A stretch of 64,000 bases of DNA from Diplonema japonicum (Eukaryota; Protista; Euglenozoa: Diplonemea): positions 434,001 to 498,000 of the forward strand of contig OZ025712.1 in assembly GCA_964019335.1 (NCBI GenBank), written 5' to 3'. Below are positions 1,425 to 63,174 of the stretch, in pieces. Both the position numbers and the translations under genes were made by a program. The notes below the pieces were generated by a model, which saw only the letters and a list, made by a program, of their open reading frames with translations, did not search any database and was not told the DNA's origin. The stretch's first letter is position 1; the number at the start of each line of letters is the position of its first letter.

Positions 1425-2285
1425 ATGTTGCGCTTCACGCTCCTTGCCACTGCGATCGCCATGGGCAGTGCCCAAACCCTGACTCAAGCTGAGACTGCCC
1501 AGGCCCTCATCGACAAGGTGTTGAATGGGACCGCCGACGACTGGACCTACCCTTGCAGACCCATCAGGCTCCCTATGAAGGATTCTGGTTATAAGCACAA
1601 GTGGTGGAAAGAGGGAGGTATGTCCCAGGAGGACTTCATGGAGGACCTGGCCCACGGGTTTGGGGGTGACGAGGGACGTGTGAATGTGACTGGCGATGTG
1701 CCTCCCGCACTTGTCTCCTGGGGCACAGACGGCAACGCCAACTTCACATGGCGTTTCCCCGACCGTGCCCTGAACAACTACTTCAAGAAGGTATTTTGGA
1801 ACATCAAATTCTGCATGTGGGAGTACGACTTCGATACTGAGTTCACGAAGTACGACCTGTTCCACGCACACGCTTTCTCGTTCGAGCATGACGGGATCAA
1901 GGACTTCGGGATGGTGTTCCACGCAAAGGAATACCCTAGCGACCTGTTCACGGGTGTCACTGGTGCCCCTTTCAACACATCGCACCCCTCCTACCCTGTG
2001 AGGAACATCTTGTGGGTGGCATCCCTCTCGCAGTCCTTCCTCATCGACTCTGACAACGTGGCGACGCATCCCCTCATGAAGCCCGACTGGCTTCAGCTCG
2101 GACAGGCTGACTGGATGGACGACTACTACTACGAGGTGTTGAAGGCCCGCACTGTGGACACCCTTCCCTTCATCGCGATGGGCTCCCGTCTTGGTGGGCT
2201 GAACTACTTCACAAGGCACACCATCGCCAACCTCACGGGGGACGCGGAGGCGGGGTGCAAATTTGACGAAGTCTTCTTCGCCTAA
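1425..2285 (+). CDS. Secreted 286-aa protein of unknown function, copy 1 (divergent copy)
   Basis: Signal peptide MLRFTLLATAIAMGSA; intact intronless ORF; paralog of the three downstream copies. Confidence 0.85.
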   Translation: MLRFTLLATAIAMGSAQTLTQAETAQALIDKVLNGTADDWTYPCRPIRLPMKDSGYKHKWWKEGGMSQEDFMEDLAHGFGGDEGRVNVTGDVPPALVSWGTDGNANFTWRFPDRALNNYFKKVFWNIKFCMWEYDFDTEFTKYDLFHAHAFSFEHDGIKDFGMVFHAKEYPSDLFTGVTGAPFNTSHPSYPVRNILWVASLSQSFLIDSDNVATHPLMKPDWLQLGQADWMDDYYYEVLKARTVDTLPFIAMGSRLGGLNYFTRHTIANLTGDAEAGCKFDEVFFA

Positions 2286-2979
2286 GCTTCTAAAGGCAGC
2301 GCGTTGTAGTGATTCGAGAGGAGAAGTTCGGACCATTCGCGTAACAAATAAATTTCTTTTCTCACTTTTTTGTTTGAGTGAGACATCATCGTCTCCTTAT
2401 CTTTTGCAATTGTCTGTTGCAAGCTAGTTAATTATTCGGTTGTTCTACCACCGCATGTTGATTACTAGTCTTCGCATTATCCCTCTCTGAGAAAGAATAA
2501 ACCTAAAAATGCGATCTATTTTCTTTTTATCTATTCTGTTATCTAACCTCTTTTTTCTTGAAGGAATCAGGAGAAATGCGGCTGCGACTGCCTTGCTACT
2601 ACAGCGGCACTCTTTAGCTTTCCTCTTTCTTTTTCAAGGCCTCATTGTGACTTCTTGAAGCTGGCTTACTCCATCGTCAGCTAAGCAGAGATTTGAATAT
2701 CCTTTTCTCTGTCCGTATTAACCAACCACCGCTTCCTCCCATCGCTACCCATTCAATCTCACACCCGAAAAAAAAGACAAAACATATTACATTTGACTCG
2801 TTGTTATTGGGTGTGAAAATACTATGAAGTCGCAGGCATAGTCACCAGCTATGCTCTCTTTCTATGTGCGAAGACCACTTTTTATATTGGCACAGCTTTG
2901 TATCTACCTATATACCTGTACCCCTTGCCAACCAGCTTTGCAGATCTATTTCAAAAAAAAAAAAAAAAAACCACTGACA

Positions 2980-3840
2980 ATGTTGCGCTTCACGCTCCTT
3001 GCCACTGCGATCGCCATGGGCAGTGCCCAAACCCTGACTCAAGCTGAGACTGCCCAGGCCCTCATCGACAAGGTGTTGAACGGTACCGCCGACGACTGGA
3101 CCTACCCCTGCAGACCCATCAGGCTCCCAAGGAAATACTCTGGGTTCCACCACAGGTGGTGGAGACATGGAGGTATGTCCCAGGAGGACTTCATGGAGGA
3201 CCTGGCCCACGGGTTTGGGGGTGACGAGGGACGTGTGAATGTGACTGGCGACGTGCCTCCCGCACTTGTCTCCTGGGGCACAGACGGCAACGCCAACTTC
3301 ACATGGCGTTTCCCCGACCGTGCCCTGAACAACTACTTCAGGAAGGCCTTCTGGAACATCAAGTTCTGCATGTGGGAGCACGGGCACAATGTGGAGTTCA
3401 CGAAGTACGACCTGTTCCACGCACACGCTTTCTCGTTCGAGCATGACGGGATCAAGGACTTCGGGATGGTGTTCCACGCAAAGGAATACCCTAGCGACCT
3501 GTTCACGGGTGTCACTGGTGCCCCTTTCAACACATCGCACCCCTCCTACCCTGTGAGGAACATCTTGTGGGTGGCATCCCTCTCGCAGTCCTTCCTCATC
3601 GACTCTGACAACGTGGCGACGCATCCCCTCATGAAGCCCGACTGGCTTCAGCTCGGACAGGCTGACTGGATGGACGACTACTACTACGAGGTGTTGAAGG
3701 CCCGCACTGTGGACACCCTTCCCTTCATCGCGATGGGCTCCCGTCTTGGTGGGCTGAACTACTTCACAAGGCCTACCATCGCCAACCTCACAGGGACCAC
3801 TCCCGACTGGTGTGACTTCGACGAGGTTTTCTTTGCTTAG
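2980..3840 (+). CDS. Secreted 286-aa protein, copy 2
   Basis: True start is ATG 2980 by identity with the other copies; the upstream extension of ORF 2851 runs through a poly-A tract. Confidence 0.85.
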   Translation: MLRFTLLATAIAMGSAQTLTQAETAQALIDKVLNGTADDWTYPCRPIRLPRKYSGFHHRWWRHGGMSQEDFMEDLAHGFGGDEGRVNVTGDVPPALVSWGTDGNANFTWRFPDRALNNYFRKAFWNIKFCMWEHGHNVEFTKYDLFHAHAFSFEHDGIKDFGMVFHAKEYPSDLFTGVTGAPFNTSHPSYPVRNILWVASLSQSFLIDSDNVATHPLMKPDWLQLGQADWMDDYYYEVLKARTVDTLPFIAMGSRLGGLNYFTRPTIANLTGTTPDWCDFDEVFFA

Positions 3841-4828
3841 AAAATCTTAGTTCCAACATCCCTACTTTCGTCCCCTCACAAGCATTTCCGTTTGATAGAA
3901 CTTGGGTAGTTTAGTATAAAGATCCTTCTCCTTCTATTGAGGGAGGCAATGGCACACCATAGAGGAAGGGGTGAGATTAAACCCCATGCCTCCTTGTTAC
4001 AGTTCCGTTGTCGAGGATCATGTCTGCCAATTACTCCGTTCTACGTAACAGCAAGGGGATCTTGTGGTTGAATGTCTACCCTCACATTTATCCAAGTCCC
4101 CTGCCTCCCCGTTTTATTTCTGACCCCCCCCCCCCCCCCTGGTTTCCCCCTCCTCTGTTATTCTCTCAAGTGCGATCCCCCTGCCCCCCATTTTATTTTT
4201 GTTTCCCCCTTCAAACGGAGAAGGGGGCAGTTGTAGCAGTATTTACTGGAGATATCCTCATTATTCATAAGAACTCTGTTTCTACGTAGTCTGTTACATC
4301 TGATGGAGAACCCGATGTCATGGAGGAGGTACCCTGTGATGTTGGCAAGTAAGGCTTGTTCCTTTACCCTGCAAATTTAAAAGCTCTCAAAAGTAAAATC
4401 CAACCCATCCTCACATTTCTCAGTGCTCTTCCCTCCTCCCCCCTTCTTTTTAATTGTTGTCGTCGTTTGCTTGATGCGGAAGGACGAAAGGCATTTCCCC
4501 GTTTTCTGTTTCCCACCTTTTTCCGCGCGATTTTTTTCTTTTTAGTCACAAGTTATTTTCAAAAAAAGAAAAATGATTATACCTTATGCAACTTATGCCG
4601 ACAACAAGGATAATATTTTTTGAGTTGGCCACCCTCTTCACCCACCCCAAGTTTTCCAGCCATGATGTTTTTCTGACACATCTGCGGTGCACTTGCTGTT
4701 CTGCTGTACGTCTCATGAAAACGGAATCTCTTTTTTCTTAAGAATGGCAAATCCCCCCTCTCCCCAATATCCACCTGCACACCTCACACACCACTGCAGG
4801 TTTTTAATTCCCTTAAATCATAAACACA

Positions 4829-5689
4829 ATGTTGCGCTTCACGCTCCTTGCCACTGCGATCGCCATGGGCAGTGCCCAAACCCTGACTCAAGCTGAGACT
4901 GCCCAGGCCCTCATCGACAAGGTGTTGAACGGTACCGCCGACGACTGGACCTACCCCTGCAGACCCATCAGGCTCCCAAGGAAATACTCTGGGTTCCACC
5001 ACAGGTGGTGGAGACATGGAGGTATGTCCCAGGAGGACTTCATGGAGGACCTGGCCCACGGGTTTGGGGGTGACGAGGGACGTGTGAATGTGACTGGCGA
5101 CGTGCCTCCCGCACTTGTCTCCTGGGGCACAGACGGCAACGCCAACTTCACATGGCGTTTCCCCGACCGTGCCCTGAACAACTACTTCAGGAAGGCCTTC
5201 TGGAACATCAAGTTCTGCATGTGGGAGCACGGGCACAATGTGGAGTTCACGAAGTACGACCTGTTCCACGCACACGCTTTCTCGTTCGAGCATGACGGGA
5301 TCAAGGACTTCGGGATGGTGTTCCACGCAAAGGAATACCCTAGCGACCTGTTCACGGGTGTCACTGGTGCCCCTTTCAACACATCGCACCCCTCCTACCC
5401 TGTGAGGAACATCTTGTGGGTGGCATCCCTCTCGCAGTCCTTCCTCATCGACTCTGACAACGTGGCGACGCATCCCCTCATGAAGCCCGACTGGCTTCAG
5501 CTCGGACAGGCTGACTGGATGGACGACTACTACTACGAGGTGTTGAAGGCCCGCACTGTGGACACCCTTCCCTTCATCGCGATGGGCTCCCGTCTTGGTG
5601 GGCTGAACTACTTCACAAGGCCTACCATCGCCAACCTCACAGGGACCACTCCCGACTGGTGTGACTTCGACGAGGTTTTCTTTGCTTAG
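4829..5689 (+). CDS. Secreted 286-aa protein, copy 3
   Basis: Protein identical to copies 2 and 4. Confidence 0.85.
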   Translation: MLRFTLLATAIAMGSAQTLTQAETAQALIDKVLNGTADDWTYPCRPIRLPRKYSGFHHRWWRHGGMSQEDFMEDLAHGFGGDEGRVNVTGDVPPALVSWGTDGNANFTWRFPDRALNNYFRKAFWNIKFCMWEHGHNVEFTKYDLFHAHAFSFEHDGIKDFGMVFHAKEYPSDLFTGVTGAPFNTSHPSYPVRNILWVASLSQSFLIDSDNVATHPLMKPDWLQLGQADWMDDYYYEVLKARTVDTLPFIAMGSRLGGLNYFTRPTIANLTGTTPDWCDFDEVFFA

Positions 5690-6677
5690 AAAATCTTAGT
5701 TCCAACATCCCTACTTTCGTCCCCTCACAAGCATTTCCGTTTGATAGAACTTGGGTAGTTTAGTATAAAGATCCTTCTCCTTCTATTGAGGGAGGCAATG
5801 GCACACCATAGAGGAAGGGGTGAGATTAAACCCCATGCCTCCTTGTTACAGTTCCGTTGTCGAGGATCATGTCTGCCAATTACTCCGTTCTACGTAACAG
5901 CAAGGGGATCTTGTGGTTGAATGTCTACCCTCACATTTATCCAAGTCCCCTGCCTCCCCGTTTTATTTCTGACCCCCCCCCCCCCCCCTGGTTTCCCCCT
6001 CCTCTGTTATTCTCTCAAGTGCGATCCCCCTGCCCCCCATTTTATTTTTGTTTCCCCCTTCAAACGGAGAAGGGGGCAGTTGTAGCAGTATTTACTGGAG
6101 ATATCCTCATTATTCATAAGAACTCTGTTTCTACGTAGTCTGTTACATCTGATGGAGAACCCGATGTCATGGAGGAGGTACCCTGTGATGTTGGCAAGTA
6201 AGGCTTGTTCCTTTACCCTGCAAATTTAAAAGCTCTCAAAAGTAAAATCCAACCCATCCTCACATTTCTCAGTGCTCTTCCCTCCTCCCCCCTTCTTTTT
6301 AATTGTTGTCGTCGTTTGCTTGATGCGGAAGGACGAAAGGCATTTCCCCGTTTTCTGTTTCCCACCTTTTTCCGCGCGATTTTTTTCTTTTTAGTCACAA
6401 GTTATTTTCAAAAAAAGAAAAATGATTATACCTTATGCAACTTATGCCGACAACAAGGATAATATTTTTTGAGTTGGCCACCCTCTTCACCCACCCCAAG
6501 TTTTCCAGCCATGATGTTTTTCTGACACATCTGCGGTGCACTTGCTGTTCTGCTGTACGTCTCATGAAAACGGAATCTCTTTTTTCTTAAGAATGGCAAA
6601 TCCCCCCTCTCCCCAATATCCACCTGCACACCTCACACACCACTGCAGGTTTTTAATTCCCTTAAATCATAAACACA

Positions 6678-7538
6678 ATGTTGCGCTTCACGCTCCTTGC
6701 CACTGCGATCGCCATGGGCAGTGCCCAAACCCTGACTCAAGCTGAGACTGCCCAGGCCCTCATCGACAAGGTGTTGAACGGTACCGCCGACGACTGGACC
6801 TACCCCTGCAGACCCATCAGGCTCCCAAGGAAATACTCTGGGTTCCACCACAGGTGGTGGAGACATGGAGGTATGTCCCAGGAGGACTTCATGGAGGACC
6901 TGGCCCACGGGTTTGGGGGTGACGAGGGACGTGTGAATGTGACTGGCGACGTGCCTCCCGCACTTGTCTCCTGGGGCACAGACGGCAACGCCAACTTCAC
7001 ATGGCGTTTCCCCGACCGTGCCCTGAACAACTACTTCAGGAAGGCCTTCTGGAACATCAAGTTCTGCATGTGGGAGCACGGGCACAATGTGGAGTTCACG
7101 AAGTACGACCTGTTCCACGCACACGCTTTCTCGTTCGAGCATGACGGGATCAAGGACTTCGGGATGGTGTTCCACGCAAAGGAATACCCTAGCGACCTGT
7201 TCACGGGTGTCACTGGTGCCCCTTTCAACACATCGCACCCCTCCTACCCTGTGAGGAACATCTTGTGGGTGGCATCCCTCTCGCAGTCCTTCCTCATCGA
7301 CTCTGACAACGTGGCGACGCATCCCCTCATGAAGCCCGACTGGCTTCAGCTCGGACAGGCTGACTGGATGGACGACTACTACTACGAGGTGTTGAAGGCC
7401 CGCACTGTGGACACCCTTCCCTTCATCGCGATGGGCTCCCGTCTTGGTGGGCTGAACTACTTCACAAGGCCTACCATCGCCAACCTCACAGGGACCACTC
7501 CCGACTGGTGTGACTTCGACGAGGTTTTCTTTGCTTAG
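6678..7538 (+). CDS. Secreted 286-aa protein, copy 4
   Basis: Protein identical to copies 2 and 3. Confidence 0.85.
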   Translation: MLRFTLLATAIAMGSAQTLTQAETAQALIDKVLNGTADDWTYPCRPIRLPRKYSGFHHRWWRHGGMSQEDFMEDLAHGFGGDEGRVNVTGDVPPALVSWGTDGNANFTWRFPDRALNNYFRKAFWNIKFCMWEHGHNVEFTKYDLFHAHAFSFEHDGIKDFGMVFHAKEYPSDLFTGVTGAPFNTSHPSYPVRNILWVASLSQSFLIDSDNVATHPLMKPDWLQLGQADWMDDYYYEVLKARTVDTLPFIAMGSRLGGLNYFTRPTIANLTGTTPDWCDFDEVFFA

Positions 7539-7690
7539 AATTTTCTTTTTCGGGCACACCAATGATGATAGTTGTTTCTGTTCTTTCCTCCCAATCCTAT
7601 CGTATGGCCATCATAATCCCGTGATGAAGAAAAGCAATGGTGCGAAGAGAAAATACTTTTTCTGAACGCTGGCCTTTTTCTTTTACCCAT

Positions 7691-21598: not shown

Positions 21599-21712
21599 GG
21601 GTTAAGGCCAGCAGTTAGTGTAATGAGACCTCTAGCCCCCCTTATGAGAAGGGATGTTACAGTGTTTGTGCTCGTGCATCACACAGCCACACAGCACTCA
21701 GGAGGGGTCGAT

Positions 21713-22975
21713 ATGTCGGAACCAACAAAAAAGAGGAAGACAGATGATGGGAAGAAGAAGAAAGAAGTACCAAGCGTGAATCCCAGTGGAGGGTGCGACG
21801 TGTGGCTGCCGAAGAAGAACAGGTTCTGCAGATTCGAGAAGAGCACCGGACGGTACTGCGGGCACCACATCGAGGAGCGAGTGCCTTGTCCTGTGAACCC
21901 GAACCACACAATCAAGCGCGACCAGTTAGATGAGCACGTCATCGTGTGCAGCGACAGGCACATGCTGCCCCCGGAAGACGAACCCTACTATGAAAAGGGT
22001 GTCAATGAAGGCATCAAAGGAGAAAACCCCCCAAAGAGGCCCCAGTCCACTGTTACCCTTACACCCGATTTGCTCGAGCAGCAGGTGATTGAGATCATTG
22101 AAAGTTTCACTTTGCCGTCTGACATCGAAAACTGCCGTTACACGTGGCCGCCTGGCGGAGCGGTGGAAGAAAAGGACGAGACAGCCGGCAATGATGACAA
22201 TCTCAAACACGACGAGAAGCACGAGCACCAGATAGGATCTCTGTTGGGCCACTTACACGCTGAAGGAGTTCTCCCAAGCAGGAGTGTGTCTGTAAAATTG
22301 AAAGGCCCTGTTGACTGTGAGAAGGCCGAGGCAGAGGGCGAAAACGAGGGTGAGAGTGAGAAGTACAGGTACATGGAGTTCGGGGCAGGGAAAGGTGCCC
22401 TGTCTGTTTCGATCGCGCGAGTGCTGTACGGCGAGGGAACAGAGGGTGGCAAGATAGTCCTGATCGATCGGTCCAATTTCCGGAGGAAGTGCATCCACCC
22501 TAATCTAGACAGGGTTTTCATTGATCTGCGTGACCTAAAGCTTCAGACACTCATGGGCACCGCCAAGCCCGTGGTGGGCTTCTCCAAACATCTGTGTGGC
22601 GTAGCAACAGACTACACTCTATCCTGCTTCTTAAACTCCCCCGATGTTCCCTTAGCGTGCTTGTCGATCGCCCTCTGTTGCCACCATCGGTGCATCTACA
22701 AAGACTACATCAACAGACCCTTCCTCACAGCGCTGGGGATCTACGACGAGCACTTCAAAATGCTCACTAAGATCTCGTCTTGGGCCGTTGACGGCGGCGG
22801 GAGAACTGAGGTCGAGTCGCATAAGACAAAGCTCGGGAGGAAGGCAAAACGGTTGCTAGACTTCGGCAGAATGCAGAAGATGACTGAACAAGGCTACAAG
22901 TGCAAGCTGCTGCACTACATCGACACCCGCCATACACCTGAAAACTGCCTCATGCTTATCAGTAAGACGTCTTAG
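21713..22975 (+). CDS. TRM13: tRNA:m(4)X 2'-O-methyltransferase Trm13
   Basis: N-terminal C..KKNRFC..YCGHH and CPVNPNH..HVIVC zinc fingers; EFGAGKG, KHLCGVATD, ALCCHHRC and TPEN motifs. Confidence 0.92.
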   Translation: MSEPTKKRKTDDGKKKKEVPSVNPSGGCDVWLPKKNRFCRFEKSTGRYCGHHIEERVPCPVNPNHTIKRDQLDEHVIVCSDRHMLPPEDEPYYEKGVNEGIKGENPPKRPQSTVTLTPDLLEQQVIEIIESFTLPSDIENCRYTWPPGGAVEEKDETAGNDDNLKHDEKHEHQIGSLLGHLHAEGVLPSRSVSVKLKGPVDCEKAEAEGENEGESEKYRYMEFGAGKGALSVSIARVLYGEGTEGGKIVLIDRSNFRRKCIHPNLDRVFIDLRDLKLQTLMGTAKPVVGFSKHLCGVATDYTLSCFLNSPDVPLACLSIALCCHHRCIYKDYINRPFLTALGIYDEHFKMLTKISSWAVDGGGRTEVESHKTKLGRKAKRLLDFGRMQKMTEQGYKCKLLHYIDTRHTPENCLMLISKTS

Positions 22976-54718: not shown

Positions 54719-56345
54719 ATGTCTGCCACACGCAACGTTATCGTGCGTGGGCTTAGGTACCACCAGAAGGGCAGCCCGTCGGCTGTGCTGAAAAAAGAAG
54801 AGTGGGTGACACCGTTCAACAAAACTTCTAGCGATGTTGTTGTGAAGATGGAAGCAAGCCCTGTGCACCACCACGACAAGTGGATGATTCAGGGGAGATG
54901 CGGGGGTTTGGAGCACCAGGGCAGCCCGAAGGTGGGGGGAAGCGAAGGTGTTGGCATCGTAAGTGAAGCAGGTGCAGGATGCAAATTTCTCAAAAAAGGC
55001 GACCGTGTGATTTTCAACAATCAGACTGTGGGGACCTGGGCTGACAAAGTTGTCACAGGCGAGAACAACCTGGATAGGGTGCCACTGGACATGCAGCCAG
55101 AGGACATGGCCATGATGAACGTTTATGGCACTGCGTGGAGAATGGTGAATGACTACGGGAAGATCAAACCTGACGATGTGTGCTGGGTGATTGGTGGTGG
55201 TGCTGTTGCACAAGCGACAGCGTGCCTGCTGCAGCAGAAGGGTGCCAAAGTGTTCATGATCATGAGGGCTGGCAGACCTAACGAAGGTGCTGTGCACCAG
55301 TCGATACGTAAGCACCTCCCTACCACCACCACCATCAAGGCTTCGCTACTCACGCAAAAAGTGATGAGGACCATCACGTCCGATATCCCGAAGCCCTCTT
55401 TCATCTTCAATGGCTCAGGTGGCGACACACTACGCGAGTCCCTTCGCTACGCAGGTGACTCGTGCAAAGTGATTTCCTTCGGGAATATGTCCCGTCAACC
55501 GCTCTCGGTCTCAGTGGGGAGACACATCTATCAAGACATCCAGCTGCTGACCTTTTGGTACTCGCGATACCTTGCAACCTCGTCGAGGGAGGACAGGGAG
55601 GCCATGTACAGCAGCATCGCAGAAATGATGAGAACAGGTGCCCATGGTAACACTTACGGTTCGGAGTGGCAGCTTGCAAGCAGGCTGGTATGAAAGTCAA
55701 GAGGGAAATAAAAAACTGCAGTTTGTGCGTGCCGAGCGATACAACTTTGACACGCAGCACGAAGACGCTTTGACCAACTCTACGCTGCTTTTCACCAACA
55801 GAAAGGTCTGTTTTCATAATTTGAACACTAACCATTTGACAGCCCGTTTTGAGATTTGGCGAGGAGTACACGTACACGCACAGTGGCGAGTGGTTCAAGG
55901 AACACGAGTTCTTCCTTCCTGAGGACTCCCAGTATGTGAAAAACATGGAGCACGCCACTGCTGAGAGACTGAAAGGTGAACACAAATCTGTGGTATGCGT
56001 GATGTGCAAAGGAAACGTTTACAACTACACAGGAGAATGGGGGCCCAGTGCTGCTGGATCAGTTCAATGCCTTGTGGGACAGCAAAGAGGCAACAGAGAT
56101 CCGAAAGGGAATGAAGGCCTGGAACCAGAGGCTTGATAACACGGAGCTGCTTGAGGTATGCTGTGGTGGCTCCATTTCATGTTGACACACAGGACACGTA
56201 TGAGCGATACCTTGAGACACAGGCTGCGAAATACAACATCAACTTGAACGTTGAAACGAGGAAGAAGGGACAACTCAGTCACAATCCTCACATGGAATGC
56301 TTCTTCCCTGATGATGACGCTCTTGTTTCAAAGACTCTCAACTAG
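54719..56345 (+). CDS. Mitochondrial trans-2-enoyl-thioester reductase (MECR/Etr1)-like MDR protein with C-terminal extension
   Basis: V.VKMEASPV..D..MIQG, GGSEGVG.V, GDRV, GTW, N..TAWRM; introns 55688-55721, 55806-55842, 55993-56032 and 56156-56192 give a continuous frame to TAG 56345. Confidence 0.8.
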
Positions 56346-56733: not shown

Positions 56734-56807
56734 GTTCCCATGGTCTAGTTGGTTATGACGTCGCCTTAACACGGCGAAGGTCTCCGGTTCGAACCCGGAT
56801 GGGAATA
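56734..56807 (+). tRNA. tRNA-Val(AAC)
   Basis: Cloverleaf GTTCCCA/TGGGAAT; anticodon arm TCGCC-TTAACAC-GGCGA; GTTCGAA T-loop; T-run terminator. Confidence 0.95.
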
Positions 56808-57106: not shown

Positions 57107-57179
57107 GGGGGTGTAGCTCAAATGGTAGAGCGCTCGCTCAGCATGCGAGAGGTAGAGGGATCGATGCCCTCCATCTCCA
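57107..57179 (+). tRNA. tRNA-Ala(AGC), C at position 33
   Basis: GGGGGTG/CATCTCC with G3:U70; arm CTCGC-TCAGCAT-GCGAG; ATCGATG T-loop typical of eukaryotic Ala; T5 terminator. Confidence 0.93.
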
Positions 57180-57256
57180 CTCTTTTTCTGGTGTCTTCTT
57201 GCATCTAAGGCCTTGTGTTTCATCACAAACAATGGATTCTCGCAAACAAAATTCGT

Positions 57257-60200
57257 AAAGGAGGGCATTGATGTCGTGATGTACGCAGACAACATTGCGG
57301 TGGTGCTGCACGAAAAAGACCTGGACAGCTTGAATGGAAAACTGATGAAGATCCTGAGGGTTGTGGAGAGCTGGTGCTCGAGAAACTCGATGGTGATCTC
57401 CAAGGGAAAGACAGAGTTCCTTCCCGTTGCTGGCATCTCCTATCCACAGAGAACACTGAAGGGGAAGATCGGAGCAACTTTCAGGACCAGTCTTCAGATA
57501 CTGCTTGGGCGTGTACGGGTCATTTCTCCTGAGCGGGAGGAACACGCCCCACGAAGGCATCAAGAAGCTTCAATACAGGGCAGCGGTGAAGATCACAGGC
57601 TGCATCGAGTCATCAGAGACATTCGCGACACTGAACGAAGCGGGGCTGTGGACCCTGGATGCGCTGATCGAGCACGACAGCCTGTTGCTCTACGAGTCAC
57701 TGATGAGAAAAGTGCCGCATATCAGGCGACTCAGCCTCTGGAGGATCTGACCAGGTACGAGAAGCTCCTACCAAGGGGACTTGGTCTGACAAACAGAGAG
57801 AGGCATCGAAAGCCTACAAACTCCCAGAGAGGACGGGCACCACCTCACTCGGGCGCCGTCTTCATGAGGAGACTCGCGGTTGCACCCTGGCAAAGATTCG
57901 AGGGGCAACTCGTGCTCTCCCCCTTCCTCGACACGCAGGTGAAAAGGACGGACCCAAAAGAGGTCAGGAAAGAGAACAACGAACACCCTGAACAGGTTAT
58001 GCGAGAAGCACGGCCTGTGCAGTCGGTGATACGGAAGATGTGCCAGGGACACATGTCGGCAGCCTCCAAAGATGACTACGAGCTCTGGCGGGAGGTCGCG
58101 AGCTTGACAGACAGAGGCCACAAGCTAATCGTTCAATACGTCCCGAGTCACTGCGGGTACAAGTGGAACGAGAAGGCGGACCAGAAGGCAAAAGAGGCGA
58201 GCGAAAGATGGCCCACACCCGTGAGACAGACATTGAGGTGGTTAAAACTCTGGTCAGGAAACATGTCATCAGAAGCCACCTCCGCCTATGGAAGGATACT
58301 AAGACGTACAGGGAGCTGTTTGCCGGAAGTTTCGAGAAGTTCGAGGAGCTGGACAGAAAAAAAGAAGTGGCGATCATGAGGGAAGAGCCACTCACTTGCG
58401 GATACCTACTCATACCCCCAGTCGAGGAGGTCCCGTGCCATCTATGTTCGCATCCTCAGACTCTAAGCCACCTCCTACGGGAATGCCAAGACGAAAAGAG
58501 GATCGACCAAAGGAGTCAGATCTTCGGTAGACACCCACAGCAATTGTTTCTAACTCAATCTCTCGACTCTGGCTTCACTCCTATCCTTTCTTTTCACCTC
58601 CCTCCCCAATGTCTTCCCTTATTTTCCATTACCAGGCCCCTGTCCCCCGCCCCCAGTGTTATTCAAATTTTTCTCTCACCTTTCATATAGAAAGAAAAAA
58701 GAGTCGGTTGATTGTTGTTTGTGCACAGCCGGGATTAACCTGTAGAAGGATAAGCCCAACAATGCTACCACTACTCTTTTTAGCAATAACAATTCATTAT
58801 CAATATATTGTTTTTCTTGTTCATGCAAAAAAGAAAAAAAAAAGAAGAAAAAAGAAGGACAGATGATTCAAGCTTCGGTAGGTGAATTCCTTTATTCTGA
58901 GAAAAAAAAAGAAGAAGAAAAAAAAAATTGAAGAACGAAACTTAATTGAACTTTTGGCTCCCGAAGCCCAACAAGTCCAGCAGATGGTGGAGTTTCACAG
59001 TCAGCTGGTTAATTTTTCACAATTGAAACTCCTCCAAAGTTCTTAAAATCTGGGAGGTCGTCTCTTGTTACTAGAGGCGGCTAATGCCTCGAGACCCAGG
59101 TGCTGCCTGGTGGTGGGATCGGTTTTATTTTAACCCATAACACTCCAAGGCGCAAATATTTGTCGTTTTGAAAAATCGGGGGGGCTTGGGGTCTACTGTC
59201 CTCTCAAGCGTAAGAGATATGGCATAAAAATATACTGCCTAAACTGCGTGAGCACGGGTTATCTTTCGCGTTTTCACATCCACGCCACCAAAAACGAGGG
59301 GCACGCACTTGAAGATTTCAATGTCGTGGAAAAGGTGGTGCTGGGGTTAACGGGGAATTTTCGGGGAACGACAACACGGTAGTTTGCAATAACTACTTTT
59401 CGACTGTGGGTCTGGCCGAAGCCCTGTGAAAAAACTGTGAGGGGGCTTGCATTTCGTTGGAGTGTTGCGGACTCTTCTGGTGGGCCCTAGAAGTGACAAT
59501 AGTTAACTGCCTTGCACTTTAAATAAAATATGGTTAAGGTTCAGCCAAAGAGATACAAAACCCTGGCTGCTTTTAAAGAGCGCTTTCGAGAGAGCCTAAT
59601 TGATGGGTCCAGCGTTGCAAAAACACCACTCCCGGCACCCAACTAGTGGAGCACACACCCGACACCCCAGATTACACCAAACGTGACCACCAACCACTCA
59701 AAGGGGGCAACTCCAGGGTCTGCAGGTTGAAAGGATGCACAAAACGCACAATCTACAAATGCTACACCTGTAACCAACACCTCTGTCCAAATAAGTGCTT
59801 TTTTCGTACCACTCTTCCATCACCCCAAAAAGGCTTCTTGACGATTTCGAGGCCGATATTCCACCCGCAAATAGGCACTTCTCTCGGTCTGAGACATCTG
59901 AGGGGTCCTGATGCTCAATTTACACCCCCCCGTGCACAACCCATTTTGACATGGTCGTTTTTGAGCACCCTACGGCCATTCAACTCTTCATCCCCTTTGT
60001 ATTTTTATTAATTTTTGAGCTTTTTTTTAAATTTTCCTGGTCCAAAAAACCCGTTTTACCTGCAAACGTAAATGCTGCCATTTTACCCGTCAAATTATGA
60101 AAAGGAGCAAAAAAGGGACCCCTATGTAGATAGGCCCCGGAGTGTTATGGGTTAAAATGAAAAGAGCGTGGTGAGGGGGTCCAAGTAATTTACTACAGGG

Positions 60201-60360
60201 AGCAGCGGACCAGGACCCCTCGACCAATGGCTCAGCAACAGAGACTGCTTTTCACGAATCACTTTCATACACTTCTAGTGATGTCCCTTTCCCCTTTCCC
60301 TTGAATTGTTTTCTCTACTCCCCTTCGATCCTCCCGCCTGGTAGTGGAATATTTATTATT
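57257..60360 (+). mobile_element. 5'-truncated, decayed Ingi/I-like non-LTR retrotransposon, copy 1 (with nested piggyBac)
   Basis: MYADNI..W...N.MVISKGKTE (RT), partial RNase H, C2HC knuckle, frameshifts and deletions relative to copy 2; ends ...GGAATATTT(ATT)2; degenerate TSD 57243-57256 / 60361-60375. Confidence 0.85.
59134..60151 (+). mobile_element. Internally deleted piggyBac transposon (1018 bp)
   Basis: TTAA-CCCATAACACTCC ... GGAGTGTTATGGG-TTAA; remnants KRYGIKIYCLNCVSTGYLSRF and VVCNNYFST..LAEAL plus Cys-rich CRLKGC..KCYTCNQHLCPNKCF; absent from the homologous site at ~62510. Confidence 0.93.
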
Positions 60361-60376
60361 CGAACAGAATCTCGTC

Positions 60377-60449
60377 GCCTCCCTAGCTCAGTCGGTAGAG
60401 CGCAAGGCCCTTAACCTTGTGGTCGCGGGTTCGAGCCCCGCGGGAGGTG
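60377..60449 (+). tRNA. tRNA-Lys(CTT), C at position 33
   Basis: GCCTCCC/GGGAGGT; arm CAAGG-CCCTTAA-CCTTG; GCGGG-TTCGAGC-CCCGC; T5 terminator. Confidence 0.93.
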
Positions 60450-60797
60450 TTTTTAATCTATTGTGATGTGGGATATTTCGGTCATCTTGGTTATGTAAGG
60501 GGTGTCCTTTCCCGTGAAATTTTTGGAATTTTTGACATGAGGTTTGTCCGGTTCGACCTCACCCTCGACTTCGACGGGTTTGCATGGCCAGATCTGGAAG
60601 GCTGGAAGGCGAAGGGGGACGTCGAGGGGACATCCTCTTCTCAACCCGGCGGACGGAAGCAAGCGAAGGCCCTTCGGTGCCAGTCGCTTGATCAGTGTTG
60701 GGAAGTCCCATACAGGAGGGTTCAATTCAAAATCAAGAATTGTTGTTCCATTTTATTAAGTTTTATTATGTGATAGTGTATCAGACCTACCTCATAC

Positions 60798-62737
60798 CGC
60801 CATGCCGCATACCAGGCGACTCAGCCTCTGGAGGATCTGACCAGGTACGAGAAGCTCCTACCAAGGAGGACTTGGTCTGACAAACAGAGAGAGGCATCGA
60901 AAGCCTACAAACTCCCAGAGAGGACGGGCACACCTCACTCGGGCGCCGTCTTCATGAGGAGACTCGCGGTTGCACCCTGGCAAAGATTCGAGGGGCAACT
61001 CGTGCTCTCCCCCTTCCTAGACACGCAGGTGAAAAGGACGGACCCAAAAGAGGTCAGGAAAGAGGCAACAACGAACACCCTGAACAGGTTATGCGAGAAA
61101 CACGGCCGGGCTTTCTGCATGGTGTTCACAGACGGGTCCGTAAAGGATGGGAAAAACGGAGGCTCGGCCGCCATCCTGCTGCACAACGGGTCCGATGCTG
61201 CCTACGGGATCAGCGGTGGACTGTATTCGACATCCTACAAATGCGAACTCAGGGCCCTGAGGCTAGGGATCCGACTGGCGACAAGACTCTCAGAGAGGAA
61301 GCTTGCAAGCCAAGGGATGGTTCTGATATGCACAGATTCGCAGTCGGTGATACGGAAGATGTGCCAGGGACACATGTCGGCAGCCTCCAAAGATGACTTC
61401 GAACTCTGGCAGGAGGTCGCGAGCTTGACAGGCAGAGGCCACAAGCTAATCGTTCAATACGTCCCGAGTCACTGCGGGTACAAGTGGAACGAGAAGGCGG
61501 ACCAGAAGGCAAAAGAGGCGAGCGAAAGACTGGCCCACACCCGTGAGACAGACATTGAGGTGGTTAAAACTCTGGTGAGGAAGCATGTCATCAGAAGCCA
61601 CCTCCGCCTATGGAAGGATACTGGCGTCACAAAGACGTACAGGGAGCTGTTTGCCGGAAGTTACGAGAAGTTCGAGGAGCTGGACAGAAAGAAAGAAGTG
61701 GCGATCATGAGGCTGAGGGTGGGGAAGAGCCCACTCACTTGCGGATACCTACTCATACCCCCAGTCGAGGAGGTCCCGTGCCATCTATGTTCGCAACCCC
61801 AGACTCTAAGCCACCTCCTACGGGAATGCCAAGACGGAAAGAGGATCGACCAAAGGAGTCAGATCTTCGGTAGCTCCCTTCCTTCCCTCAAAGTCCTCCT
61901 GTCGACCGACGCCTGTAAGACCGCCCAGCTCTTGGAGCGGCAGGGAACATTGTGAAAAAACTTATAAATTATAATATGTTATACTCTCCAAACATTGAGG
62001 TCTGAAGTTGTTAAACGACTTCAGACAGCAATTGTTTCTAACTCAATCTCTCGACTCTGGCTTCACTCCTATCCTTTCTTTTCACCTCCCTCCCCAGTGT
62101 CTTCCCTTATTTTCCATTACCAGGCCCCTGTCCCCCGCCCCCAGTGTTATTCAAATTTTTCACTCACCTTTCATATAGAAAGAAAAAAGAAAAAAAAAAA
62201 AAAAGAAAAAAAAGAAGGACAGATGATTCAAGCTTCGGTGTACACAATCGAGCTTGATTTGAATTCCTTTATTTTGAGAAAAAAAAAAAAAAAAAAAAAA
62301 CTGAAGAACGAAACTTAATTGAATTGAATTTATTGGCTCCCGAAAGCCCAACAAGTCCAGCAGACGGTGGAGTTTCACAGTCAGCTGGTTAATTTTTCAC
62401 AATTGAAACTCCTCCAAAGTTCTTAAAATCTGGGAGGTCGTCTCTTGTTACTAGAGGCGGCTAATGCCTCGAGACCCAGGTGCTGCCTGGTGGGTGGGAT
62501 CGGTTTTATTTTATTATGAAAAGAGCGTGGTGAGGGGGTCCAAGTAATTTACTACAGGGAGCAGCGGACCAGGACCCCTCGACCAATGGCTCAGTAACAG
62601 AGACTGCTTTTCACGAATCACTTTCAAACACCTCTCTTGGTTTGAAGTGATGTCCCTTTCCCTTTCCCTTGAATGGTTTTCTCTACTCCCCTTCGATCCT
62701 CCCGCCTGGTAGTGGAATATTTATTATTATTATTATT
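60798..62737 (+). mobile_element. 5'-truncated Ingi/I-like non-LTR retrotransposon, copy 2 (RNase H + C2HC, ~780-nt 3' UTR, (ATT)n tail)
   Basis: ORF 60954..61955: FTDGS, ELRAL, TDSQS, YVPSHCG..NEKAD (RNase H) and CHLC..TLSHLLREC; TSD ACCTACCTCA(T/A)AC at 60785-60797 and 62738-62750. Confidence 0.92.
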
Positions 62738-62752
62738 ACCTACCTCAAACAT

Positions 62753-63090: not shown

Positions 63091-63102
63091 TACCTCAAAC
63101 AT

Positions 63103-63174
63103 GTCCGTGTGGCTCAATGGAAGAGCGCCTGACTACGAATCAGGCGGTTGCAGGTTCGAGTCCTGCCTCGGATG
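63103..63174 (+). tRNA. tRNA-Arg(ACG)
   Basis: GTCCGTG/CTCGGAT (one T:T mismatch at 6:67); arm CCTGA-CTACGAA-TCAGG; GCAGG-TTCGAGT-CCTGC; T7 terminator. Confidence 0.93.

Follow-up and report, generated by a model that had tools for sequence, protein, structure and literature searches.

Intact tRNA genes with C33 in place of U33 in the diplonemid Diplonema japonicum and in probable dinoflagellate loci

Uridine at position 33 is taught as a near-invariant base of elongator tRNAs. The window analyzed here, a stretch of 64,000 nucleotides of contig OZ025712.1 of the marine diplonemid Diplonema japonicum, holds two tRNA genes with a cytidine at this position, which raises the question of whether C33 is converted to U33 after transcription or the tRNAs work as they are encoded. 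U33 contacts phosphate 36 through its N3 and base 35 through its 2'-OH (PMC5041475), and U is found at position 33 in 97% of tRNAs (PMC11096365). Based on the latter figure, a hand calculation gives a probability of about 0.005 for C33 in two of the four tRNA genes of the window by chance.

Four tRNA genes, all on the + strand, were identified in the window by ARAGORN, namely Val-AAC, Ala-AGC, Lys-CTT, and Arg-ACG (Table 1). Every stem of the Ala-AGC and Lys-CTT genes is paired and a run of five T lies directly 3' of each, so the original prediction of C33 within intact cloverleafs, with G3:U70 in Ala, terminators in place, and a normal U33 in the neighboring Val-AAC and Arg-ACG, agrees with what is found. 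The Rfam RF00005 scores are 64.8 bits for Arg, 63.4 for Lys, and 53 for Ala against a cut-off of 29 bits; Val-AAC is absent from the RF00005 list at the gathering score. The scores of 53 and 63.4 bits against this cut-off, the paired stems, and a compensated change in the metagenome locus L229 (see below) do not fit a tRNA pseudogene or tRNA-derived repeat. In the minimum-energy fold of Lys-CTT (z -2.4), the stems of the acceptor, anticodon, and T arms are preserved, with a 7-nt loop. The T loop of Ala-AGC has A54 as its first base, the usual start of this loop in eukaryotic tRNA-Ala. Among the viral Lys-CTT-type matches listed, 119 of 120 have T33. A G1:U72 wobble pair is present in three of the four window tRNAs (those starting at 56734, 60377, and 63103) and in the dinoflagellate Lys family (L121-L241), unlike two viral Lys-CTT genes with G1-C72.

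Table 1 tRNA genes of the window and the repeat next to the Lys gene (positions counted from the first letter of the window).
Feature	Position	Strand	Base 33	Remarks
tRNA-Ala(AGC)	57107..57179	+	C (57139)	intact; G3:U70; T32; base from assembly only
tRNA-Lys(CTT)	60377..60449	+	C (60409)	intact; C32; likely one of ~10 identical copies
tRNA-Val(AAC)	56734..56807	+	T (56767)	internal control
tRNA-Arg(ACG)	63103..63174	+	T (63134)	internal control
High-copy repeat, likely 3' end of a non-LTR element	60157..60360	+		ATT tail ends 16 nt before the Lys gene

Four public runs (X2, X3, X11, and X13) were aligned to positions 59950-60780 of the window. The Lys gene is covered in three of the four, which come from three studies, and X13 has no cover of it. 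Run X2 may be the source of the assembly itself, and X11 bears another organism label; X11 and X13 may be RNA runs, a mere guess. X11 also spans spacer repeats and its 690-nt contig is not a mature tRNA, and this run was left out of the evidence on editing. A 79-nt contig of X3 corresponds to 60377-60454 with zero differences, and its depth of 214, against 11.5, 16, and 17.6 for three adjacent contigs, suggests roughly ten or more identical Lys-CTT copies, contig depth being a poor copy count. Ten identical Lys-CUU genes are described in D. papillatum (PMC10161547). No variant lies within the Lys gene, hence no T33 Lys variant, among those listed for X2, X3, and X11, and near-identical U33 copies of Lys-CTT are likewise missing from this list. 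X2 has three C>T places and X11 two, each of them located outside 60409; X3 has four, of which three are listed. The alignment over 59950-60780 yielded no Lys-TTT gene, and diverged isodecoders may thus be missed by it. On the 3' side of the Lys gene, 60482-60509 and 60678-60780 are without cover in all four runs, and no listed contig bridges the Lys locus of the window. Contigs of three studies, the exact match at high depth, and the lack of a listed T33 together indicate that the Lys C33 is neither a sequencing error nor a single decayed copy; random decay had been considered unlikely for both genes, which holds here for Lys. Collectively, C33 is the true genomic base of Lys-CTT, and in Ala it is the base of the assembly. 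This diplonemid has lost U33 heritably, and a wider pattern in the probable dinoflagellates parallels the loss. The Lys codons of 16 unspliced window ORFs comprise 374 AAG and 197 AAA.

A metagenome scan for Lys-CTT genes with C33 found at least 125 stretches in at least 121 loci. Of the loci listed, 94 hold one eukaryotic Lys family, with C33 in 97 of its 98 genes, a proportion biased by the C33 query. Six listed loci have a pair of Lys genes, and in five of these C33 is found in the second gene as well. The Lys gene of L229 differs from that of the window solely by a compensated T-stem pair (50:64) and keeps C33, and this locus may belong to another diplonemid. The other 93 listed loci were sorted by their spacers into 74 groups that share no related spacer DNA; this spacer-based grouping replaced a first clustering that had merged 20 loci, probably via unmasked 5S and snRNA genes. 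In the 20 loci scanned, those of the dinoflagellate type are dense clusters of tRNA, 5S, snRNA, and SRP genes. Five dinoflagellate-type loci (L164, L165, L170, L171, and L135) hold a near-complete tRNA set in 8-14 kb, and also pack genes for 5S, U1, U2, U4, U5, U6, SRP, tRNA-Sec, and the spliced leader. A common 21-mer, obtained by an unbiased k-mer count and present in 6 of the 94 loci listed, matches the dinoflagellate spliced leader (PMC7245778). By this marker, the second lineage with C33 is likely the dinoflagellates, and the loci without a spliced leader were assigned to the same group, by inference, via shared tRNA families. Rfam reported no spliced-leader family in the cluster loci scanned, and their long ORFs gave no usable marker. 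A scan of 185,579 prokaryotic genomes, a loose control with no T33 denominator, returned 11 matches, 6 of them in loci without a tRNA call. Two loci in bacterial genome bins look like eukaryotic contaminants: L242 (181-259) has a dinoflagellate-type Lys gene with C33, and L248 an array of animal-like Lys genes.

The dinoflagellate-type loci enabled us to follow position 33 across other isoacceptors. From 411 non-Lys genes in the loci listed, to which all counts in this paragraph refer, 328 with three fully paired stems were kept and reduced to 160 distinct sequences, with Sec left out and the L229 neighbors included. Position 33 is C in 37 of the 160 and A or G in none, and other conserved U sites have C in 1 of 160 (U8), 6 of 156 (U54), and 0 of 156 (U55). 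Among tRNAs with A34, 21 of 41 distinct sequences have C33, compared with 16 of 119 others. Loop families with T32-T33 have C at 33 in 22 distinct sequences and C at 32 in 1. The C33 copies are distributed unevenly, with Leu-AAG (12/13), Thr-AGT (6/6), Pro-AGG (7/10), and Ala-AGC (4/7) followed by Glu-CTC (7/20), Arg-ACG (4/12), Ile-AAT (3/11), and Val-AAC (1/10); zero copies were found for Asp (14 genes), Cys-GCA (15), Gly (26), Trp (9), Leu-CAA (16), Pro-CGG (15), and Ser-AGA (12). For Met, C33 occurs in four elongator copies, and T33 is kept in the dinoflagellate initiator. One lineage (L164, L165, and L185) carries C33 across nine isoacceptors. CpG decay as the reason for the few C33-G34 genes was not significant (3/27 versus 34/133, p 0.13), p-values on tRNA sequences being too small here since relatives are treated as independent, and five ARAGORN calls of Leu-TAG with G33 were dropped as misread intron-bearing Tyr-GTA genes. 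In two protist groups, then, the constraint on position 33 is loosened so that either pyrimidine occurs there. The change is lineage-wide and position-specific, in line with the expectation that T-to-C at 33 is unlikely to be random decay.

On balance, we lean towards the explanation that the genes are intact, that their C33 is genomic, and that the tRNAs are likely used with the base unchanged, and functional unedited C33 elongators are ranked above C33-to-U editing. Such tRNAs would be made by Pol III, aminoacylated, and employed in translation with C33 retained, and the enzymes acting on them would tolerate the base. U33 was reportedly dispensable for amber suppression in yeast in 1983. An experimental precedent for unedited use is yeast tRNA-Leu(GAG), which carries C33 natively and in which C33U alters function little (PMC13492127). 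With a cytidine, the N3-H bond to phosphate 36 would be lost, presumably at small cost, whereas pyrimidine stacking and the contact through the ribose 2'-OH would be retained. Much of the need for U33 is probably due to modifying enzymes of the kind of yeast-type KEOPS and Elongator. KEOPS of human and nematode modifies C33 tRNAs while that of yeast and E. coli rejects them (PMC8887486), and tests on human and yeast Elongator have shown a dependence on U33 (PMC11096365). Lys-CUU, with C34, and Ala-AGC, with an A34 that would be deaminated by ADAT2/3 independently of the loop sequence (PMC9643335), would not need Elongator, so that, given a C33-tolerant KEOPS, the change from U33 to C33 would be nearly neutral in both. 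Homogenization of the multi-copy gene families would then fix C33, which may have arisen independently or from a tolerance common to diplonemids and dinoflagellates.

Several observations were counted for the use of C33 unchanged, namely the exact X3 Lys contig, AAG as the commoner Lys codon, C33 kept in L229, and the patchy occurrence of C33 (37/160 in the loci listed), unlike the 30 of 34 genes with C8 in Methanopyrus. Position 20 likewise shows frequent T-to-C (C in 76 of 283 distinct dinoflagellate sequences, loci listed), and the change is present at 54, which points to a general T-to-C push on weakly held sites. However, U34 tRNAs, in which Elongator should need U33, have no deficit of C33 (4/22 versus 12/97 for C34 and G34 together in the loci listed, p 0.49), and the rejection of C33 by yeast and E. 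coli KEOPS and the T33 of the dinoflagellate initiator, while t6A-type elongators have C33, also argue against unedited use. The excess in A34 tRNAs and the change of 33 over 32 are unexplained by tolerance alone and fit a deaminase, and the 22 to 1 ratio (loci listed) of changes at 33 to changes at 32, a position that normally varies, is contrary to blind T-to-C pressure.

A tentative alternative is a post-transcriptional deamination of C33 to U33, for which ADAT2/3 together with a partner, or a CDA-family enzyme, might be responsible and which would mask the gene mutations; masked T33-to-C mutations could then conceivably have spread over isoacceptors. T33 is replaced by C only (37 versus 0 A or G of 160, loci listed) while U8 and U55 hold, and families with T32-T33 change 33 and hardly 32. 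C33 is enriched in A34 tRNAs, the substrates of ADAT2/3, but Lys-CUU and Glu-CUC carry C33 and are not A34 substrates, and the A34 families Ser-AGA (0/12) and Val-AAC (1/10) keep T33 in the loci listed. Intact U34 genes with C33 exist despite the need of Elongator for U33 (PMC11096365), which favors editing; the function of unedited C33 in yeast (PMC13492127) counts against it. ADAT2/3 of T. brucei edits C32 (PMC11802342) and splays U33 beside its active site (PMC9643335), and diplonemids already have C-to-U editing in their mitochondria (PMC12699882); in their available text, however, two reviews of tRNA editing (PMC6382703, PMC11802342) do not name position 33 among the edited sites, which are 8, 32, 34, and 35 together with several in stems. 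Expanded deaminases of the ADAT or CDA type, which the original prediction had led us to look for, did not appear in one table of orthogroups gained or expanded in Diplonema, where none of eight matches to the word "deaminase" is an ADAT or cytidine deaminase. The literature searched, with most subscription papers outside it, yielded no report of C33-to-U editing, nor of C33 elongator tRNAs in diplonemids or dinoflagellates. A 1992 paper is said to have claimed editing at 32/33 of rat tRNA-Asp, in the opposite direction. We consider it possible, though doubtful, that in diplonemids and dinoflagellates the cytosolic tRNAs encoded in the nucleus undergo C33-to-U33 editing by a new or repurposed deaminase. 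If so, the U-turn base would be restored and dozens of tRNA genes would be freed to drift to C33, and the system would be a eukaryotic counterpart of the C8 editing of Methanopyrus, at a position without an editing report in the literature searched.

It is highly improbable that selection keeps C33 unedited as a means by which these tRNAs escape an anticodon nuclease, whether viral or produced by a symbiont or competitor. Such evasion by anticodon-loop changes was proposed for phage tRNAs (PMC10264068), in a paper whose main text, as available, does not mention C33, U33, or position 33. Lys and Glu are classic nuclease targets and Lys-CTT looks near-fixed for C33 (also in the second copy in 5/6 of the listed loci with two Lys genes), but U33C was without effect on cleavage by the K. 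lactis gamma-toxin (PMC2275089), and the T/C flicker across many isoacceptors looks more like relaxed constraint. We give equally little credence to silent or weak copies, or an assembly error in Ala, with U33 isodecoders elsewhere supplying the tRNA, for which the assembly-only Ala base, the lack of Lys-TTT in the runs, the X3 C>T places listed for three of four, and the many broken retroelement pieces in the region can be cited, but against which stand the Lys C33 in an exact high-depth contig and under a second organism label, the intact and covarying stems, and the C33 of Ala-AGC in four of seven dinoflagellate copies (loci listed).

Unedited, working C33 tRNAs would closely resemble tL(GAG) of S. 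cerevisiae, a cytosolic elongator with a genomic C33 whose performance is about equal to that of its U33 mutant (PMC13492127). That gene is a non-essential single copy with G34, whereas the diplonemid has a likely multi-copy Lys-CUU for the major codon together with Ala-AGC, and in dinoflagellates C33 spans many isoacceptors. The initiator tRNA-Met of multicellular eukaryotes is another likeness, with a fixed C33 and a tolerant KEOPS (PMC8887486, PMC9023262); there, C33 is confined to the initiator, while here the elongators have C33 and the dinoflagellate initiator has T33. Among the editing systems, the C8-to-U8 change by CDAT8 in Methanopyrus kandleri likewise concerns a genomic C at a near-invariant U in several isoacceptors (PMC6382703, PMC11802342), but it acts at position 8, in 30 of 34 genes and by a known enzyme (PMC6382703), compared with C33 in 2 of 4 window genes and in 37 of 160 distinct dinoflagellate sequences (loci listed). 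The C32-to-m3U32 pathway of T. brucei ADAT2/3-TRM140 is also a euglenozoan anticodon-loop C-to-U change beside the wobble base; it differs in its position, its restriction to tRNA-Thr, and its start from a canonical C32 (PMC11802342). The two genes of the window are not targets of this type, as their odd base is at 33 and in Ala and Lys. In dinoflagellate Thr-AGT, T32 is already genomic in all six copies of the loci listed (L139, L157, L164, L165, L170, and L185), whereas T. brucei makes U32 by editing. Mitochondrial tRNA hyperediting in Isoetes engelmannii restores unpaired conserved uridines by C-to-U changes, but it is organellar and affects many sites per tRNA, including stems (PMC2731911). 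Phage tRNAs with altered anticodon loops are similarly intact genes with loop changes (PMC10264068), although they are viral genes facing host enzymes and the present ones belong to the host's own cytosolic set.

A C33 elongator is thus known from yeast, and what appears new is C33 in these two groups or, if the base is edited, a new editing site. An apparently whole Lys-CUU family in a diplonemid and many dinoflagellate isoacceptors without U33 offer natural material on the role of this base, and open the question of whether U33 is needed for the ribosome or for enzymes such as KEOPS and Elongator. Neither a new cytosolic editing site nor a lineage-wide tolerance would have a precedent in these two plankton groups, both of them abundant, and tRNA finders may score genuine C33 genes in their genomes too low. 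The tRNAs of dinoflagellate genomes have never been systematically studied, according to PMC7245778.

The tRNA genes of the window lie among mobile elements. A second copy of the high-copy repeat (Table 1) occupies 62516-62728, and element tails stop 6, 16, and 12 nt upstream of the Ala, Lys, and Arg genes, respectively. If these elements home to active Pol III genes, the tails would lend weak and indirect support to the use of both C33 genes. A 12-nt target-site duplication (62741-62752 and 63091-63102) frames a poly(A)-tailed element just upstream of the Arg gene. Two broken non-LTR retroelement copies with RT and RNase H remnants (57230-58540 and 60777-61955) belong to a segmental duplication of 57713-60360 versus 60803-62728. 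A piggyBac-like element of about 1 kb (59130-60155), which has terminal inverted repeats and lies between a pair of TTAA sites, is missing from the duplicated segment 60803-62728; it is of high copy by contig depth and has a weak match to Transp_Tc5_C below the cut-off (E 0.0007). The long window ORFs with recognizable products lie on the + strand. A reductase ORF (54719-55690) has one fully identical counterpart in EukProt and shares 65% identity with a protein of Diplonema papillatum, which by itself indicates a diplonemid other than D. papillatum. A gene for the tRNA methyltransferase TRM13 is located at 21599-22975 (Pfam PF05206, E 7e-54), and four tandem genes at 1425-7540 encode a protein of about 290 aa that lacks a Pfam match and begins like a signal peptide.
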